A DNA stretch of 64,000 nt from a virus, in the IMG/VR virus record IMGVR_UViG_3300018422_000002, positions 1 to 64,000 of that record; one strand, 5' to 3'. The stretch's first letter is position 1. Every line of letters starts with the position of its first letter. Below, in pieces: positions 2,744 through 47,649 of this stretch. The notes below the pieces were generated by a model. The model searched no databases. It was not told the origin of the DNA and saw nothing but the letters and a program-made list of their open reading frames with translations. A program made the translations under genes and the position numbers.

Positions 2744-3144
2744 AGGTGCCTCCTGATCAGCTCGGCGATCTCGGCGAACGACCGACGCGAGTGCTCGGCT
2801 CCCACCGTCACGCTGCCGTCGTTGTGCGTCGCCAGATCGACGCTGGCCACGATGGGGTTGCCGTTCGGCAGACCGGCCCAGGTGACGACCGTGGGCGGCA
2901 GCTGCGTGGCGTAGCACTTGGCGGGAGTGATCCCCCGGTCGACGCCCACGTCGTGGTAGTAGTACCGGTCGAAGTCGAGCGTGCGGGCGATCACACCGTC
3001 CGCGTACGCCAGCTCGCACAGGACGCCGAGGCAGCAGTATCGGAACACGCCCGGTGCCACCTCACGCGCCAGCAGGTCCCGGCCCTGCGTGTACTCACCG
3101 GACGTCAGCGCGGCGAGCCACCGCGCCTTGACCTCGGGATTCAT
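2740..3144 (-). CDS. CCLGVLC-motif paralog 4 of 5
   Basis: ATG 3144. Motifs WLAALTSGEYTQG, CCLGVLCE, WAGL, HNDG, FAEIAELIRRHL. Longer central insert. Confidence 0.75.
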   Translation of the reverse strand: MNPEVKARWLAALTSGEYTQGRDLLAREVAPGVFRYCCLGVLCELAYADGVIARTLDFDRYYYHDVGVDRGITPAKCYATQLPPTVVTWAGLPNGNPIVASVDLATHNDGSVTVGAEHSRRSFAEIAELIRRHL

Positions 3145-5983: not shown

Positions 5984-6219
<236 letters not shown>

Positions 6220-6235
6220 GGTCAGGTCTCCTCGG

Positions 6236-6757
6236 TTAGGCGGTAGGGGTGGTGGGAACGGTAGGGGCGACGGTGGTTCGGACGGCCCGCAGCGCGCGGA
6301 GCCCGTCGACGAGCTGCGCGGCGGCCAGCGGCCCGACGTCCGTCGCCAGGTCGACGATCACCCAGGACAGCGCGTCCGGCTGATCTACGTGGATACGTCT
6401 GGCGTACGCGTGACAGACGGCCCAGCTGGTACCAGACGGCCCGTCGCGTAGGTCGGCCCACGCCAGGTACGAACGGTCGGACGGCGGAGGCACGTCCAGC
6501 GCGGCCGGACGGAGGTGGTCGGCGGTCCGCAGCTCTAGGAGGTCGTTGTGCGTCGTCACGACGTCCCGGGCGAGCTCCTCCCAGACGGCGTAGAACATCG
6601 TGCGATCGCCCGCGTCCACGTCCTGCTCCGACGTCGGTCGATCCACGGTCGCGACCGCCCAGCCGCCGACCTCGTCGTCGCGGACGACGTACCAGGGGGC
6701 GGCGCGGAGCAGCGCGAGCTGCTCGCGGGCGAGGGCGGTCAGGTCGCTCGCGCTCAC
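6236..6757 (-). CDS. hypothetical protein
   Basis: ORF 6236..7060 trimmed to GTG 6757, which overlaps the stop of 6754..6999 (GTGA). Confidence 0.6.
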   Translation of the reverse strand: MSASDLTALAREQLALLRAAPWYVVRDDEVGGWAVATVDRPTSEQDVDAGDRTMFYAVWEELARDVVTTHNDLLELRTADHLRPAALDVPPPSDRSYLAWADLRDGPSGTSWAVCHAYARRIHVDQPDALSWVIVDLATDVGPLAAAQLVDGLRALRAVRTTVAPTVPTTPTA

Positions 6758-6999
6758 CGGCCATGCCTGCGGTTCTCGGCCTCGATCGCCTCGCGCCGCG
6801 ACCGCTCCAGGTCGGCGACGGCCGCGTCGGCGAGCCTCTGGGCGGCGGCGTCCGCCTTCGCCTTGCGCTCCGCCGCCTCGGCCTCCTGCTGGGCGGCACG
6901 TCGTCGTGCCACCTCGGCGTCGCGGGCCGCCTGCTCGGCGCGCTGGCGTTCCGCCGCCTCGCGCATCGCGGCGGCGAGTGGGTTCTCGTCCTTGGACAC
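6754..6999 (-). CDS. charged coiled-coil protein
   Basis: GTG 6999 is preceded by AGGAGG. A/E/R-rich helical sequence (REAAERQRAEQAARDAEVARRRAAQQEAEAAERKAKAD...). Confidence 0.6.
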   Translation of the reverse strand: MSKDENPLAAAMREAAERQRAEQAARDAEVARRRAAQQEAEAAERKAKADAAAQRLADAAVADLERSRREAIEAENRRHGR

Positions 7000-7028
7000 G
7001 GGTCCTCCTAGGTCGTCGGTCGGTCGGG

Positions 7029-7160
7029 TCAGGGACCGAGCAGGTCCTCGACGACGGCATCGGCGACGGCCTGGGCGGCCGTCTCGGCGGTCCAGCCCTC
7101 GTCGGTGGCGTCGTCGTCCTCGTCGCGGGACGACCGCAGTGGGTCGTGCGGCTGGGTCAT
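7029..7160 (-). CDS. small acidic hypothetical protein
   Basis: 43-aa ORF from an internal ATG of ORF 7029..7238. High G/C3, weak RBS. Confidence 0.4.
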   Translation of the reverse strand: MTQPHDPLRSSRDEDDDATDEGWTAETAAQAVADAVVEDLLGP

Positions 7161-7417
7161 CACGATGTGGTCTCTTCTCGTCCGGTCGTCGGTCGGTCGT
7201 AGCGTACGCCGGTCGGTCACCGGCGCGGTGACGCGCACGCCGGTCCGGCGACGCGCGTCCGCTCGTGTTCGAACGCGCGTCGCCGAACCTTCCTACGCCG
7301 TTCGACCGCCGCCACGCGGCGCACGAGGGGGCAGTGCGGCCCCGGTGCGCGGCGGGTCCGACCGGCGGTCGAACGACGTCGACGCTACCGGTCGACGTCA
7401 CGGTATCGGTGTCGCGC

Positions 7418-29975: not shown

Positions 29976-30305
29976 GTGTTCGGACGAGCACGTCGCGGCA
30001 ACCCGCTCGACGTAGACGCGTCCCGGTTTCGGCAGCCCAGCCGGGACCGGGACGCGTCGTCGGGTAAGCAGGAGTTCACGGTCACGTGCGACGTCGGTGG
30101 CTTCGGTTCGGTTAAGATACCTTGGCTGGGGGTCGACGAGGTCGATGCCGGTAACAGCTTTCTCGACTACCTATTCGACGACGAGGCGTACGGTGACGTC
30201 GAGGGTCGGCACCCGAACATACGAATGTTGTACGTTCGGTTCAACGGTCAACCGAAGCTACTTACGTTCCGAACCGACTGGATCGCGGGCTTCACGGTAC
30301 ACTAG
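29976..30305 (+). CDS. hypothetical protein
   Basis: 109-aa ORF. GTG lies 1 nt after the upstream stop. Confidence 0.55.
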   Translation: MFGRARRGNPLDVDASRFRQPSRDRDASSGKQEFTVTCDVGGFGSVKIPWLGVDEVDAGNSFLDYLFDDEAYGDVEGRHPNIRMLYVRFNGQPKLLTFRTDWIAGFTVH

Positions 30306-30316
30306 GAGGAGACGTC

Positions 30317-30514
30317 GTGGCCGATGACCACGTCGACGTACGGATCACCGGCACCGAGGAGCAGATACTCGGGGTCGAGAAGACGCTCGGAACGGACACG
30401 ATCTACAAGCTGGCCCAGGCCGCCCGCACACACGACGTCATGATCTCGATCACCGTCACGCCGTACGCGGACGACGTACCGGAGGAGACGGATCGTGGTC
30501 CAGACGAGCGCTAA
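30317..30514 (+). CDS. hypothetical protein
   Basis: 65 aa. AGGAGGAG upstream. Confidence 0.6.
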   Translation: MADDHVDVRITGTEEQILGVEKTLGTDTIYKLAQAARTHDVMISITVTPYADDVPEETDRGPDER

Positions 30515-30650
30515 ACCCACGGTACTACGACGCGTCGTCCGAACGTTGCTACTGACGTTCACGACGGTCGTGGTCGCGCCGCTGGTGCTGCTCGGCGCGT
30601 CGCTGCTGGGATTGTACGCCGTCCAGCTCATCTGCGAGCTGCTCGACTGA
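30495..30650 (+). CDS. small membrane protein
   Basis: 51-aa ORF, not in the track. GGAGGAG upstream. Hydrophobic core TVVVAPLVLLGASLLGLYAV. Confidence 0.45.
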   Translation: MVQTSAKPTVLRRVVRTLLLTFTTVVVAPLVLLGASLLGLYAVQLICELLD

Positions 30651-30682
30651 CGTAGTTGACCGACCTACCGACCGGAGTCACG

Positions 30683-31090
30683 ATGCCAAAGATTCGACTA
30701 GCCCCACTACCTGCCGACGACGTCCCGATCTGGGATGCGCTGGTCGCCGAGCTCGGCGACCCACGACCCTACGAACCGACCGAGGTCGGTACCGTCACCG
30801 TCACCGACGAGCCGTGCGTCGACGACGGCGGCTTCGACGACGCGTTGACCGACCTCGACGACGAGGTCGAGCGGTTCTGTCACTACGCCGATGAGCTCAC
30901 CTTCGACGCGAGCAACGAGCTCGACGACCTCGTCGCCGAGTTTCAGCTCAAGCACGGCATCGTCGTGCTTGAGCGCCTCGTCACCTCGACCGTCGGCGAC
31001 GCCACGATCATGGCACCGGCGCTCGGCGTCCTCGACCAGCTGAACCACCCGATCGACCAGACCCAGGAGCTTCCGAGATGGCCGTCCTGA
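30683..31090 (+). CDS. acidic hypothetical protein
   Basis: ORF 30656..31090 trimmed to ATG 30683, which is preceded by GGAG. Confidence 0.6.
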   Translation: MPKIRLAPLPADDVPIWDALVAELGDPRPYEPTEVGTVTVTDEPCVDDGGFDDALTDLDDEVERFCHYADELTFDASNELDDLVAEFQLKHGIVVLERLVTSTVGDATIMAPALGVLDQLNHPIDQTQELPRWPS

Positions 31091-31341
31091 TCGTCCTCGC
31101 GTTCGTTATCAGCGTCGCCATCGGCGCCGTCGTCCAGGTGCTGTCCGACCAGTACCCACGCGGTCGGACGTCGCCTCGCGATCGACTGCTACGAAACAAC
31201 CCGGCGCTGGTCGGACGCGACGTCCGCTGGACGCGCGCCGCGCGTCGCGTTCGGTTCGGTCGACTGACCGCGTTGGCGGTCAGCGTCGCGCTGTACGTCG
31301 CGTTCCAACGTCCGGCTACGCCGACCGTCGACGCTAGATGA
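31078..31341 (+). CDS. small membrane protein
   Basis: 87 aa with two hydrophobic segments. Confidence 0.6.
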   Translation: MAVLIVLAFVISVAIGAVVQVLSDQYPRGRTSPRDRLLRNNPALVGRDVRWTRAARRVRFGRLTALAVSVALYVAFQRPATPTVDAR

Positions 31342-31408
31342 TCTTGAACGTCGTGCCGACGACGACTACGATCGTCGTAGTTGATCATCGACACGAGGGA
31401 CGGGATCG

Positions 31409-31606
31409 TTGACAGATGACTTTGACGTTGATGAACTTGACGGTACCGGCGCGATCGAGCCGAGCGCGAGTCAGCGTGGATCGGCGAGGGTGCTCTACAG
31501 CACGTTCGTGGCGTTAGTTCAGGCTGGGTTTACCGACGAGCAGGCACTCGCCGTCGTCGTCGGTATGATCCACTCGGTGGACGACGTGATCGACACCGAG
31601 CGGTAG
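31409..31606 (+). CDS. hypothetical protein
   Basis: 65-aa ORF with a TTG start. Contains a TATGAT box near its 3' end (31564-31569). Confidence 0.5.
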   Translation: MTDDFDVDELDGTGAIEPSASQRGSARVLYSTFVALVQAGFTDEQALAVVVGMIHSVDDVIDTER

Positions 31607-31612
31607 ATGACC

Positions 31613-31734
31613 TGCGCTGGACGCGTCAAGCCGTGCCGACAACCTGACATTGAGACACGGTAAGGCCGTTCGGAGGGATTCGTATGTCGGTATTCTTGCC
31701 CTCTGACATGAACGCGTCCTGCGCGTCCAGCGCA
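31613..31734 (+). ncRNA. structured element copy A (three-helix candidate RNA, or a packaging-region DNA structure)
   Basis: 13-bp closing stem 31613-31625/31722-31734. P2 is 31631-31635/31656-31660. P3 is 31670-31677/31699-31706. Shares sequence blocks and helix geometry with copy B. Confidence 0.45.
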
Positions 31735-31910
31735 CCTACCACCGCGTGATCGTCACCAGATCGATGACGCGTACTGCTATGATTATCTCATAACAACAGA
31801 ACGACGTCGGACCGCCGATGCGCGAGGTACCCCCAGCTCGTGCGTCGGTTCGTCGGCCGCAGACGGCCTCGTAACCTGGCAGGGCGAGGCGGTCACCCCG
31901 GCGGTCGACC

Positions 31911-31993
31911 GCGTCTCATCGTCTAAGCGAAGGACGGCGACCAGGGACCGCAGCCTGGTCGACGGTCTGGGGCTCGAGGCCCCAGTGAGACGC
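31911..31993 (+). ncRNA. structured element D
   Basis: 8-bp stem GCGTCTCA/TGAGACGC encloses two 7-bp hairpins (GACCAGG/CCTGGTC and CTGGGGC/GCCCCAG). Lies directly upstream of the RBS of 32017. Confidence 0.35.
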
Positions 31994-32016
31994 ACCTAAC
32001 GTGAAGGAGCAGTGAG

Positions 32017-32409
32017 ATGGACTGGGCGTTCTGGGTCGGTACCACGATCTTCGTCGGTACCGTCGGTGGACTGTTCTGGATGCGGAACCATCCTCTGGTC
32101 GACGAGCACGGACGTCGTCTTCCATCGCTCGACCGGTCGACGCGCGCCGTCCTAGACGAGCTGCTGGACACCGACGACGCGCCGCGCTCCGCGTACGAGC
32201 TACGTCGACGTGTACGGTTGACGCCGGACCGCTTCAACGACCTGATGGGTCGCATGACCCTCGACGGCCTGGTCAACTGGCGACCTCCGCACAGCGTGCT
32301 CGGTAACCCGATGATCGCGCCTCACGGTCGTTATGAGTTGACCAGGGCTGGGATCGCTAGGGGTCTCGGACTCGACCGCGCGGTGGGGCGCGGTCGACAC
32401 CGCGCGTAG
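32017..32409 (+). CDS. membrane-anchored winged-helix-like protein
   Basis: 130 aa. GAAGGAG upstream. N-terminal hydrophobic helix, then a region resembling a MarR/PadR-type wHTH (weak call). Confidence 0.65.
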   Translation: MDWAFWVGTTIFVGTVGGLFWMRNHPLVDEHGRRLPSLDRSTRAVLDELLDTDDAPRSAYELRRRVRLTPDRFNDLMGRMTLDGLVNWRPPHSVLGNPMIAPHGRYELTRAGIARGLGLDRAVGRGRHRA

Positions 32410-32536
32410 CGCGAGGTCGGACACCCCGGTAGGACCGGTACTAGGACGCTGACGAGCGCGTCGTTCGCGACGAACGTGCTCACGGGGTGGTTGGGCGTTC
32501 TCTACGCAACCTGGTACCGGTCACCTCGCGCTACGC
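32404..32536 (+). ncRNA. structured element C
   Basis: Perfect 14-bp stem GCGTAGCGCGAGGT / ACCTCGCGCTACGC. Inner 7-bp stem CACCCCG/CGGGGTG. Confidence 0.35.
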
Positions 32537-32554
32537 TGCGTCGTTCACAACCCC

Positions 32555-32679
32555 GTGCTAGGTGCGTCAAGCCGTCCCGGTAGCTGACATTCAGGCGGTA
32601 AGACTCGTTCGGGAGCTTCCGAAAGACTAGGTACCGGGCCCTCCAGCTCCTGTTATGAGCGTCTCTGCGCACCTAGCAC
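32555..32679 (+). ncRNA. structured element copy B
   Basis: 12-bp closing stem 32555-32566/32668-32679. P2 is 32572-32576/32594-32598. P3 is 32610-32617/32645-32652. Ends 24 nt before the terL ATG. Confidence 0.45.
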
Positions 32680-32703
32680 ATTCCTCGCGTTACGCTGACG
32701 AGC

Positions 32704-34059
32704 ATGACCAACGAGCGCGACGTGGCAGCGGCGACCGCCCGCGCGTTCGAGCAGTACATGCTCCGGCCGCCGGAGTGGAAGCCGCACCCGCACCAGGTTC
32801 CTCCGGAGGGGGACTGGTACGGCTGGCTGTTGCTCGCTGGTCGTGGTTCCGGTAAGACCGACGCGTGCTCGAACTACGTCGCGAACCACGTCAAGGGACC
32901 GCCGTGCCTCGGCGGCGCGGCCCCCCACTGGATCAACATCATCGCGCCGACGCTCGGTGACGCCGTCACCGCCTGCTACAGCGGTCCGTCCGGCATCCGC
33001 AACCACAGCCCCGACGCGAAGATGGTTCAGACCGCCGGTGGTACCATCATTCGCTGGCCGAACGGCAGCCAGGCCAAGCTGCTGGGCGCGTCCAGTCCTG
33101 AGGACGTCGAGCGACTGCGCGCCGCCGGTAACTCGTGTGTGACGTGGGCGGAGGAGCTCGCCGCCTGGCGCTACCTAGAGCAGTGCTGGCAGCAGATGCG
33201 CTTCGGCCTCCGCTCCGGTCCGCGACCTCACTGGATCGGCAGCACGACGCCGAAGCCGCGACCGCTCATTAAGAAGCTCGCCAAGGAGACGCCGCACAAC
33301 GTCGTCGTCGTACGCGCGACGACCGACGACAACCCGTACCTAGAGTCGCACGTCCGCGAGGCCCTGTACGACGAATACGGCGGCCTGCAGATCGGTCGAC
33401 AGGAACTCTACGCGGAGATCCTCGACGAGGACAAGAACGCACTCTGGCGTCGTCAGAACATCGACGACTACCGGATCAAGCCACGTGATATGCCGTCGTT
33501 CGGTAGGATCAGCGTCGGCGTCGACCCGTCCGGTGGTGCCGGCGAGCAGGGCATCATCGTCGTCGGCAAGAGCATCAGCAACTTCATCGAGGACGGTAAG
33601 ATGAAGACGCGGATCCAGGGCTACGTCCTAGACGACCGGACCGTGACCGAGTCACCGGACGGCTGGGGTCGTGCTGTCGTCCGTGCCGCCGTCGACTGGG
33701 AGGCCGACGACGTCGTCGTCGAGGTGAACTTCGGCGGTGACATGGCCGTCGCCACCATCGCCGGTGCCGCCGAGAAGCTCGGCATCAACATCCCCGTGCG
33801 TCAGACGCGCGCGTCGCGAGGCAAGCGCGTTCGCGCCGAGCCGGTCGCCGCGCTGTCCGAGCGTGGCTACTGGCATCACGTCGGTACGTTCGAGGAGCTC
33901 GAGGACCAGCTGGTCACCTGGACCGAGGAGCTCGGCTTCTCGCCGGACCGCCTCGACGCCATGGTCTGGCCGGCGTGGCACCAGCGGATGGTGTCCGCGA
34001 GTCTACGTGGTGAGGCGAAGTTCGGTGGAGGTGTCGCCCGCCTGCAGATCGTCAGGTAG
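32704..34059 (+). CDS. terL: terminase large subunit
   Basis: 451 aa. Walker A LLAGRGSGKTDA. Position upstream of the portal gene. No SD before the ATG. Confidence 0.9.
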   Translation: MTNERDVAAATARAFEQYMLRPPEWKPHPHQVPPEGDWYGWLLLAGRGSGKTDACSNYVANHVKGPPCLGGAAPHWINIIAPTLGDAVTACYSGPSGIRNHSPDAKMVQTAGGTIIRWPNGSQAKLLGASSPEDVERLRAAGNSCVTWAEELAAWRYLEQCWQQMRFGLRSGPRPHWIGSTTPKPRPLIKKLAKETPHNVVVVRATTDDNPYLESHVREALYDEYGGLQIGRQELYAEILDEDKNALWRRQNIDDYRIKPRDMPSFGRISVGVDPSGGAGEQGIIVVGKSISNFIEDGKMKTRIQGYVLDDRTVTESPDGWGRAVVRAAVDWEADDVVVEVNFGGDMAVATIAGAAEKLGINIPVRQTRASRGKRVRAEPVAALSERGYWHHVGTFEELEDQLVTWTEELGFSPDRLDAMVWPAWHQRMVSASLRGEAKFGGGVARLQIVR

Positions 34060-47229: not shown

Positions 47230-47649
47230 GTGACTGAACCTACGGCAACCGTCGCCGTCGATGATGAGATCATGGACTTCTCGTCGCCGCGCCGTTCCCT
47301 CAAGTTTCGTGTAGACGAGGACGTCTTTGAGGCCGCACCTGACATTGCCGCCGAGCTGATGCTGAGGTACGCCGACATGGTCGAGCGACTCAGCGGCGAC
47401 GACGCTACCAACGAACAGCAGAAGGAGATCATCCACGCGCTGTTCCGCATGGTGTTGTTCCCGGACTCCGCCGAGCGGTTCATTAAGCGGCTGAGCGATC
47501 AGCGTCATCCGATCGGTCAGGTGAAGATCGCTAAGATCACACGTTGGTTGTTCGAGGAGTACGGGCTCCGCCCTACCGAATCGGACTCAGTATCCTTCAC
47601 TGGGTCCGAGAACCGGGACGCTGGCACGAGCTTGACGGTGAGTACCTAG
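47230..47649 (+). CDS. tail assembly chaperone (G-like)
   Basis: 139 aa, immediately upstream of the tape measure gene. Confidence 0.6.
   Translation: MTEPTATVAVDDEIMDFSSPRRSLKFRVDEDVFEAAPDIAAELMLRYADMVERLSGDDATNEQQKEIIHALFRMVLFPDSAERFIKRLSDQRHPIGQVKIAKITRWLFEEYGLRPTESDSVSFTGSENRDAGTSLTVST

Follow-up and report, generated by a model that had tools for sequence, protein, structure and literature searches.

The 64,000-nucleotide (nt) stretch of viral DNA analysed here (positions 1 to 64,000 of IMG/VR virus record IMGVR_UViG_3300018422_000002, hereafter the window) carries, in the region upstream of the large terminase subunit gene terL, two copies, A and B, of an RNA motif of about 120 nt. Our study indicates that this motif almost certainly is a genuine structured RNA and belongs to a new family. 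An original prediction, made from the letters of the window, had proposed a new structured phage RNA, and the proposal is borne out by 29 homologues with compensatory changes, a pseudoknot, a strong asymmetry between G-U and A-C oppositions and the lack of an Rfam match. Judged by its placement, the motif is co-transcribed with the genes on its strand, within polycistronic mRNA, and we tentatively propose that its job is mRNA processing or differential stability, that is, a form of punctuation between cistrons.

Conserved fold and covariation

The motif folds as a three-way junction in which a GC-rich closing helix of 10-13 base pairs (bp), P1, encloses two arms: P2, which is short, and P3, which is long and irregular and composed of P3a, P3b and P3c. 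In the alignment of the 29 distinct sequences, standard pairs fill 97.0% of the cells, against 71.2% in shuffles, and both sides have changed in 18 of the 23 pairs. The covariation score is 0.642, against 0.164 in shuffles, and none of 500 shuffles reached it; a slid control, in which the 3' partners were shifted by 1-3 columns, left 35-55% paired. Double changes occur in 10 of the 12 pairs of P1, and P2 and P3c covary too. The alignment was fitted to the covariance model, and the pairs can also be read straight from the unaligned sequences. RNAalifold recovers P1, P2 and P3 independently, together with CGUUC/GAACG at the base of P3. In addition, the AGG of the junction strand J2/3 can pair with a CCU just ahead of the 3' strand of P1, where the AGA/UCU of the B-type copies represents one compensatory event.

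The original prediction had taken the compensatory changes between A and B as a sign of selection on structure, and had named covariation in related phages as the way to check it. The homologues keep all three helices, with covariation above that of shuffles, so the claim stands for the family; the A/B pair alone would have been insufficient. Single-sequence folding of A and B gives z = -3.4 and -2.8 relative to shuffles, and the minus strand folds equally well. Because these folding energies are moderate and the same on both strands, the structure is not provable from the two copies, and the proof comes from the homologues.

A predicted covarying pseudoknot between the start of the P2 loop (L2) and the middle of the P3 loop (L3) goes beyond what had been proposed before. 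The first 5-9 nt of L2 are complementary to the middle of L3 in all members except the short L042, and both sides change together (CCGAC/GUCGG in A, CCCGGUA/UACCGGG in B and, in other members, CCGGC/GCCGG, CCGGGC/GCCCGG, GCCAC/GUGGC, CGCCC/GGGCG and UCCCCCCGA/UUGGGGGGA). Among 17 representatives, the complementary run between a member's own loops has a mean of 6.6 nt, as against 4.3 nt for shuffled loops (z = 10.5) and 4.8 nt for loops exchanged between members (z = 6.4), and the observed value was reached by none of 2000 randomizations in either control.

The junction itself is nearly invariant, with 32 columns that are at least 90% conserved, including GCG-UCAA, AAGGCCGUUCGG and CUGNCAUGAACGCGNCCUGCGC. 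It is important to note that part of this invariance is circular, an ascertainment bias, because 19-22 of the conserved junction positions were demanded exactly by the scans that retrieved most of the members. GCGUCAA, CGG/CUG and CCUGCGC are conserved though the scans did not demand them. An alternative pairing in copy A, of 31614-31626 with 31712-31724, is weak in L001 and absent in B, and was rejected as a conserved switch.

Copies A and B, whose coordinates and sequences were re-read exactly as first reported, are identical in 71 of 129 aligned columns (about 55%) and yet keep P1, P2 and P3. The pairings first proposed for them agree with the sequences: the closing stems are perfect (13 bp in A, 12 bp in B), P2 is GCCGTG/CACGGT in A and GCCGTC/GGCGGT in B, and P3 is CGGAGGG/CCCTCTG in A and CGGGAGCT/AGCTCCTG in B. 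With respect to the sequence blocks described as common to the two copies, the composite pattern TCAAGCCGT..CTGACATT..GGTAAG does occur only twice in the window, and in none of 100 shuffles, but CTGACATT, common to A and B, is not conserved across the family.

The 8-mer CUGACAUU is present at the matching place of the P2 loop in A (31644-31651) and B (32584-32591), while the remaining arm sequence differs, and it occurs again at 47339 of the window. It is not conserved in the family, and the two copies in L103, a close relative of the window, have GACAG in common instead. The 8-mer common to A and B could reflect gene conversion or a phage-specific partner.

Family members and their retrieval

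The first homologues (L002 3299-3417 and L001 2827-2940) were obtained through terL relatives in viral and genome contigs, and together with A and B they gave a first covariance model of four sequences. Further members came from scans of viral contigs and metagenomes for the most conserved strings, in which exact AAGGCCGTTCGG and ATGAACG were demanded. Our study identified 30 covariance-model matches (E = 1e-8 to 1e-25), of which 29 are distinct, among contigs of viral and metagenomic origin, and two additional members that bear inserts, L032 and L049. Members are 102-129 nt long, with a median of 120. Copy A has orthologues at the same place in L103, L001, L108, L002 and L100. L103 carries an A-type copy (6196-6316) and a B-type copy (6994-7108), and A and B are each conserved with their own orthologue there. 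Since both types are also present in L103, A and B are, by this distribution, old paralogues and not a recent duplication.

An exact scan of viral contigs with the window's own blocks returned no match, so these blocks are lineage-specific. A B-type pattern scan gave 43 matches, none of which was confirmed by the covariance model, and with a broader model, R2, the regions within 4 kb of terL in L003-L030 gave no additional copies. As for cultured phages, megablast of the region gave no near match, blastn of the element against 50,697 phage records gave no match, and the terL of the window is at most 43% identical to that of any cultured phage. Five cultured phages whose head-tail adaptor is related, namely GMA1, TinyDot, Picard, Eklok and SV1, yielded no member in a filter-free covariance-model search. 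In these phages (Gordonia GMA1 and TinyDot, and Streptomyces Picard, Eklok and SV1; L113-L117), the gap between capsid and adaptor genes holds small ORFs (open reading frames) of 114-285 nt annotated as 'hypothetical protein'.

Some Streptomyces assembly contigs, about 92-96 kb in size (L007/L028, L022/L030 and L029), carry relatives of the window's terL with 61-64% identity. These are whole viral contigs according to IMG/VR and may be large extrachromosomal prophages or phage-plasmids; none of them has a copy of the motif within 4 kb of terL.

Strand, coding potential and known families

The helices contain 69 G-U cells against 4 A-C cells, and P3 includes an invariant G-U. Because G-U far exceeds A-C, the selected structure is the RNA of the gene (+) strand, as the complementary strand could not form the helices. 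At most 14 of 27 members are open in any one reading frame, and the member lengths are spread evenly over the residues modulo 3, so that the motif is, by its reading frames and lengths, non-coding. Two coding alternatives were rejected. A leader peptide starting at the conserved AUG of CAUGAACG is contradicted by copy B of L103, which has AAG, by the differing frames of A and B and by the lack of a conserved frame; programmed read-through of the upstream stop would add an extension of 18 codons that is not conserved.

The original prediction did not recognise the motif as any named RNA family, and the comparison with Rfam 15 (4227 models) agrees with it. There was no match overlapping either copy at E <= 10 (30500-33500, and copy A alone), only noise around the L050 member (E > 0.5), and no gathering-level match in the whole window or in 20 member loci (128 kb). 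ARAGORN called neither transfer RNAs (tRNAs) nor transfer-messenger RNAs in the 64-kb window; hammerhead core, K-turn and tRNA-like dimensions were looked for by eye and are not present. A full-text literature search turned up no description of the motif, although absence from a partial literature is not proof. As these tests of membership failed, the motif is new as an RNA family; its mechanism may still be of a known kind.

Genomic placement

The motif is intergenic in every case and lies on the strand of the flanking genes. Its hosts are phages and prophages of high-GC (actinobacterial-type) bacteria, and its commonest site is the structural-gene cluster. Prophage copies are present in the IMG isolate genomes that underlie contigs UViG_2734482071, 2645727600 and 2844640215. 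The window derives from an assembly of metagenome type; its GC content is 57-74% per 2-kb segment, mostly 63-73%, and it carries portal and major head genes further downstream, in the same orientation. The genes that flank the motif differ by locus and include terL, a GerE-type helix-turn-helix protein, a head-tail adaptor, a head maturation protease and DUF397. The upstream stop codon precedes the 5' end of the motif by 3-16 nt, or by 40-58 nt that include a GC-rich hairpin. The sole exception to this rule is copy B of the window, which has element C (described below) in that interval. On its 3' side, the motif is separated from the next start codon by 15 to about 280 nt.

The A-type loci (the window, L103, L001, L108, L002 and L100) have the motif 3-6 nt after the stop of a 65-amino-acid (aa) ORF of family phrog_26408 in six of six cases. 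Their 3' side varies: it holds either a conserved inverted repeat and TTCTGCTAYGATTA block, with other elements or a DUF397 gene behind it, or else a GerE-type gene that begins 23 nt on. The B-type copy of L103 starts 3 nt after the stop of the preceding ORF and is followed by element C and then terL.

The largest group (L045, L044, L050, L104, L098, L048, L032, L110, L111, L099 and L049, the last with an ambiguous downstream gene) shows the order capsid-module gene, GC-rich hairpin without a U tail, about 10 nt, motif, 15-31 nt, Shine-Dalgarno (SD) sequence and next gene. The upstream gene is a confirmed major head protein gene in L048 and L032, and the downstream gene is a confirmed head-tail adaptor (phrog_541) in L045, while that of L032 matches only families of unknown function (phrog_18316); the other adaptor genes of the group were mostly recognised by eye, from a common N-terminus. 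In L047 the motif precedes the head maturation protease. The known contig coordinates of L034 and L040 place it 5.6 kb upstream of terL, and in these two and L097 it follows a TGnTANNNT sequence by about 30 nt and precedes an ORF by 83 nt. The originally described position upstream of terL thus holds for the lineage of the window, and elsewhere the motif is mostly found in the gap between capsid module and adaptor.

The 5-15 nt on each side of P1 are C/A-rich and G-poor in most members, with ...ACCC before and ACC.. or CACCCC.. after the motif (for example window 31735-31744, L045, L050, L104 and L111). A window ORF at 29976-30305, ending in ...LLTFRTDWIAGFTVH, resembles the L034 ORF at 2792-3141 that follows the motif (...ITFRTDWVSGFAVQRVG); since the two are alike, the same gene family adjoins the motif in one lineage and lies 1.3 kb from it in the window.

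A possible role in mRNA punctuation and its alternatives

We propose that the motif may act as an autonomous intercistronic punctuation module, indifferent to its flanking genes, that would mark the end of the upstream cistron and give the upstream and downstream segments of the mRNA different fates. The transcript would be cut at or beside the motif, by self-cleavage or by a directed host RNase. The cut would leave the upstream message (often that of the capsid) with a protective hairpin at its end and the downstream message with a compact, nuclease-resistant fold at its start, permitting differing levels of, for example, capsid and adaptor. Several observations argue for an autonomous module acting on the transcript. 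The flanking genes differ and the spacing to the upstream cistron is tight. The 3' flanks, SD sequence included, show no expression platform (folding z = -0.7 to +0.5 relative to shuffles), and a P1 of 10-13 GC-rich bp is too long and stable for a ligand-operated switch, considering the P1 lengths of known riboswitches. Finally, copy B and element C exchange their order between two close relatives and are for that reason regarded as self-contained cassettes.

Several points weigh against this proposal. A passive nuclease roadblock would need neither some 30 fixed junction nucleotides nor a pseudoknot, and such conservation fits catalysis or specific binding better than simple stability. Part of the sequence invariance stems from the exact demand for AAGGCCGTTCGG and ATGAACG in the scans. 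A start codon comes 15-46 nt after the motif in 19 of 29 members, a spacing that would suit a 5' leader acting on the downstream gene as well, and the Rfam searches revealed no resemblance to a known class of ribozyme. The main argument for more than passive stability is how extremely the junction is conserved, and it makes a self-cleaving ribozyme a serious sub-hypothesis, although we consider it unlikely that the motif is a new ribozyme of this kind. Taken more broadly, an active RNA of a new class, either an operon-punctuating self-cleaving ribozyme or an RNA that oligomerises through L2 and L3 in head assembly or packaging with a classical terminase, has a slightly better but still modest chance of being the answer.

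The same proximity to a start codon, together with an aptamer-like architecture (a three-way junction closed by P1, kissing loops and fixed junction nucleotides), would suit a cis-regulatory leader whose junction binds a small molecule or protein and tunes translation of the next gene, and the C-rich tract after P1 pairs weakly with the SD sequence in L050, L111 and L002. We nevertheless find this explanation unlikely: the downstream genes are mutually unrelated and form no consistent functional class, six A-type copies have, ahead of the next ORF, a promoter-like block or between 96 and about 280 nt of other sequence, the length and stability of P1 far exceed those seen in known switches, and no conserved terminator or SD-sequestering hairpin was found in flanks that fold with z near 0. 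An excised, stable trans-acting RNA, such as an assembly or packaging RNA (pRNA), a particle oligomerising through L2 and L3 or a decoy for a host factor, seems less probable again. It would account for the pRNA-like size, closing 5'/3' helix, three-way junction and two complementary loops, for the end-to-end pairing of 10-13 bp that is typical of stable excised RNAs, for the location among head and packaging genes, and for the loop sets of A and B, which do not cross-pair within one genome, either in the window or in L103; the neighbouring elements C and D are likewise closed by long terminal helices. Nevertheless, no promoter or terminator of its own was detected, the motif does not match the Rfam pRNA, its phages have a classical Terminase_6 terL instead of a phi29-type motor, and the pseudoknot strand directly continues the P2 strand, which suits intramolecular pairing.

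Processive antitermination, in which the RNA would modify RNA polymerase to pass later terminators as Bacillus EAR or HK022 put do, appears improbable to us. The location inside long operons is EAR-like, the motif follows the promoter-like TGnTANNNT by about 30 nt in L034, L040 and L097, and in capsid contexts it comes after a first, presumably leaky, hairpin; however, the A-type motif stands where a transcription unit ends, ahead of a promoter-like block, and there is no resemblance to any Rfam family, antiterminator RNAs included. Marginally weaker is the case for an elaborate factor-independent terminator or attenuator with P1 as its GC-rich stem. Terminators without U tails occur in actinophage phiC31 and offer a precedent for such a P1 (10-13 bp, no U tract), and the positions of the motif match typical terminator positions, since attenuation in phages commonly occurs behind capsid genes, at operon ends and ahead of late genes. 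Such a terminator would need neither a conserved interior of 100 nt nor a pseudoknot, its 'loop' would be about 95 nt long, a simple GC hairpin already stands directly upstream in at least 11 loci, and copy B would stop transcription just before terL; moreover, the terminator consensus scan of 31000-33000 called none on the + strand, and the sequence after P1 is C/A-rich and not U-rich. The competing explanation in the original prediction, a DNA-level site for packaging (cos/pac) or terminase recognition, to which a small mobile element (a miniature inverted-repeat transposable element, MITE) may be added, is very improbable. The window-lineage copies do lie just upstream of terL, a 15-nt direct repeat surrounds copy B of the window and B and C are rearranged between the window and L103, but most members are far from terminase genes (in the gap between capsid module and adaptor or protease, or 5.6 kb from terL) and the tolerance of G-U and not of A-C (69 against 4) means that duplex DNA or the opposite strand is not the selected form. 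We therefore reject cos/pac for the motif, since most homologues lie away from terL and the pairing is strand-specific. Against a mobile element, the arms of P1 differ and covary, unlike conserved transposon ends, A and B are old, diverged paralogues (about 55% identical), and the flanking direct repeat is found at copy B of the window only.

Features of the window and neighbouring elements

The features of the two copies and their adjacent genes are collected in Table 1.

Table 1. Positions of copies A and B, their helices and loops, and the adjacent genes in the window.
Feature	Position	Strand	Remarks
Copy A (A-type)	31613-31734	+	122 nt; covariance-model match 125.6 bits, E = 1e-24
Copy A P1, 5' strand TGCGCTGGACGCG	31613-31625	+	partner 31722-31734; perfect 13-bp inverted repeat
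Copy A P1, 3' strand CGCGTCCAGCGCA	31722-31734	+	perfect 13-bp inverted repeat
Copy A P2 hairpin	31630-31661	+	stem 31630-31635 / 31656-31661; loop L2 31636-31655
Copy A L2 pseudoknot strand CCGAC	31636-31640	+	first bases of L2
Copy A long P3 arm	31663-31720	+	P3a, P3b, P3c and loop L3
Copy A P3a	AGG 31663-31665 / CCT 31718-31720	+	one compensatory difference between A-type and B-type
Copy A P3b	CGTT 31667-31670 / AACG 31711-31714	+	independent RNAalifold prediction
Copy A P3c	CGGAGGG 31671-31677 / CCCTCTG 31699-31705	+	covaries
Copy A loop L3	31678-31698	+	pseudoknot partner GTCGG 31686-31690
Copy B (B-type)	32555-32679	+	125 nt; covariance-model match 102.5 bits, E = 8e-20
Copy B P1	32555-32566 / 32668-32679	+	perfect 12 bp
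Copy B P2	32571-32576 / 32594-32599	+	
Copy B P3c	32610-32617 / 32645-32652	+	
Copy B pseudoknot	CCCGGTA 32576-32582 with TACCGGG 32632-32638	+	
Small ORF, 65 aa, phrog_26408, function unknown	31409-31606	+	stop 6 nt before copy A
terL (large terminase subunit)	32704-34059	+	tblastn to annotated terminases; Pfam Terminase_6N and Terminase_6C

As first described, copy B ends 24 nt before the terL ATG at 32704, with no GGAGG-type SD sequence in between. The gene has no recognisable SD sequence in L103 (7248-7257) either, where it begins with GTG 7 nt after element C. The TATGAT box at 31564-31569, described ahead of copy A, did not hold up: it lies inside the ORF at 31409-31606 and is not a conserved -10 box, because L103 has TGTGAT there. 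A sigma-70 consensus scan of 31000-33000 called no promoter.

Element C (32404-32536, 133 nt) combines a 14-bp closing stem, the perfect repeat seen before and confirmed here, with a 13-bp inner helix, GACCGGTACTAGG/CCTGGTACCGGTC, and a possible pseudoknot, CACCCCG/CGGGGTG. It folds with z = -5.9, and its 5' strand overlaps the stop codon of the ORF at 32017-32409. Our search for this element elsewhere found it in L103 only (7115-7249, 91% identical). The order is C-B-terL in the window and B-C-terL in L103 (6990-7255), and copy B of the window is flanked by a 15-nt direct repeat, CCTCGCG(C/T)TACGCTG (32524-32538 and 32683-32697), which is the 3' strand of the closing stem of C recurring just ahead of the terL ATG. 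Together, the swap and the repeat look like a cassette rearrangement or insertion.

Element D (31911-31993) is a four-way junction just before the SD sequence of the ORF at 32017-32409. The stem first reported for it is real, but its 8 bp enclose three hairpins and not two. Its counterparts are located at 6478-6560 in L103 and at about 3293-3366 in L001, which has the same fold with a different closing stem (GCUUCCA/UGGGAGC) and different hairpin sequences. The element is cloverleaf-like, with neither an ARAGORN call nor an Rfam match.

Between copy A and element D, a conserved block at 31745-31795 contains an inverted repeat (GTGATCGTCAC / GTCACC..GGTGAT) followed by TTCTGCTAYGATTA(T/G)(C/T)(T/C)(C/T)(A/T)TA, with counterparts in L103 (about 6335-6380), L001 (about 2950-3005) and L108. 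The block, for which the sigma-70 consensus scan gave no call, could combine an operator with an extended -10 promoter or be related to a cos site.

Significance and comparison with known systems

Few RNA folds are as conserved as this one, in which about 30 junction nucleotides are fixed and the three helices and the pseudoknot all covary, and folds so conserved have usually proved to be ribozymes, riboswitch aptamers or parts of ribonucleoprotein machines. Almost nothing is known about RNA-level control of capsid-to-tail stoichiometry in high-GC phages. If the motif is a processing or self-cleaving module, it would explain the uncoupled expression of adjacent late genes and would offer a compact, context-independent engineering part for Streptomyces and Mycobacterium; were it an RNA that oligomerises or serves in packaging, RNA-dependent assembly would extend beyond phi29-like phages. 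RNA-only cages have recently been described, and these cages and the phi29 pRNA are the oligomeric assemblies to which the L2/L3 option can be likened.

The phi29 pRNA (RF00044) shares with the motif a length of about 120 nt, a closing 5'/3' helix, a three-way junction, two arm loops that are Watson-Crick complementary, and a phage-encoded location near head and packaging genes. There is, however, no covariance-model similarity; the loop complement is 5-9 nt in the motif and 4 nt in the pRNA, the motif is embedded in mRNA between genes whereas the pRNA is a separate gene at the genome end, and its phages use a Terminase_6N/6C terL and not a gp16-type ATPase. The pRNA forms its ring on the portal through complementary loops that pair from one molecule to the next; in the motif, the loop sequences alone fit pairing within a molecule as well as between molecules. 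The resemblance is a lead and not a classification. Purine-riboswitch-type aptamers are also built around a P1 that closes a junction of conserved nucleotides, with two arms held side by side by L2-L3 pairing, but the motif is about twice their size, with a P1 of 10-13 bp and unequal arms, and it lacks a detected expression platform, a consistent downstream gene and an Rfam match.

The small ribozymes found between phage genes (hammerhead, twister, twister-sister, pistol and hatchet) are of comparable size, combine a multi-helix junction and a pseudoknot with a conserved core, and lie within phage gene clusters independently of their neighbours. The motif has none of their cores: CUGANGA/GAAA is absent by inspection, there are no covariance-model matches, and the junction strands, UCAA, (U)AAGGC and CG-N-CCUG, differ from those of the hammerhead, for which Rfam gave no match. 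The RNase III sites of T7 and stabilisers of the repetitive extragenic palindrome (REP) type, as in malE-malF, also lie between cistrons of one operon, are indifferent to the flanking genes and are thought to set the levels of upstream and downstream messages, and the motif often has a capsid gene upstream; unlike the motif, they are simple or irregular hairpins without a conserved core or pseudoknot. EAR and HK022 put, structured RNAs of about 70-120 nt, occur within long operons or at their start, and HK022 has two put copies per genome, but they show no similarity to the motif in sequence or structure, and the A-type motif comes last in a transcription unit and precedes a promoter-like block. 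By analogy, then, the topology of the motif resembles that of the phi29 pRNA and purine-type aptamers, and its genomic behaviour resembles that of small ribozymes and intercistronic processing sites.

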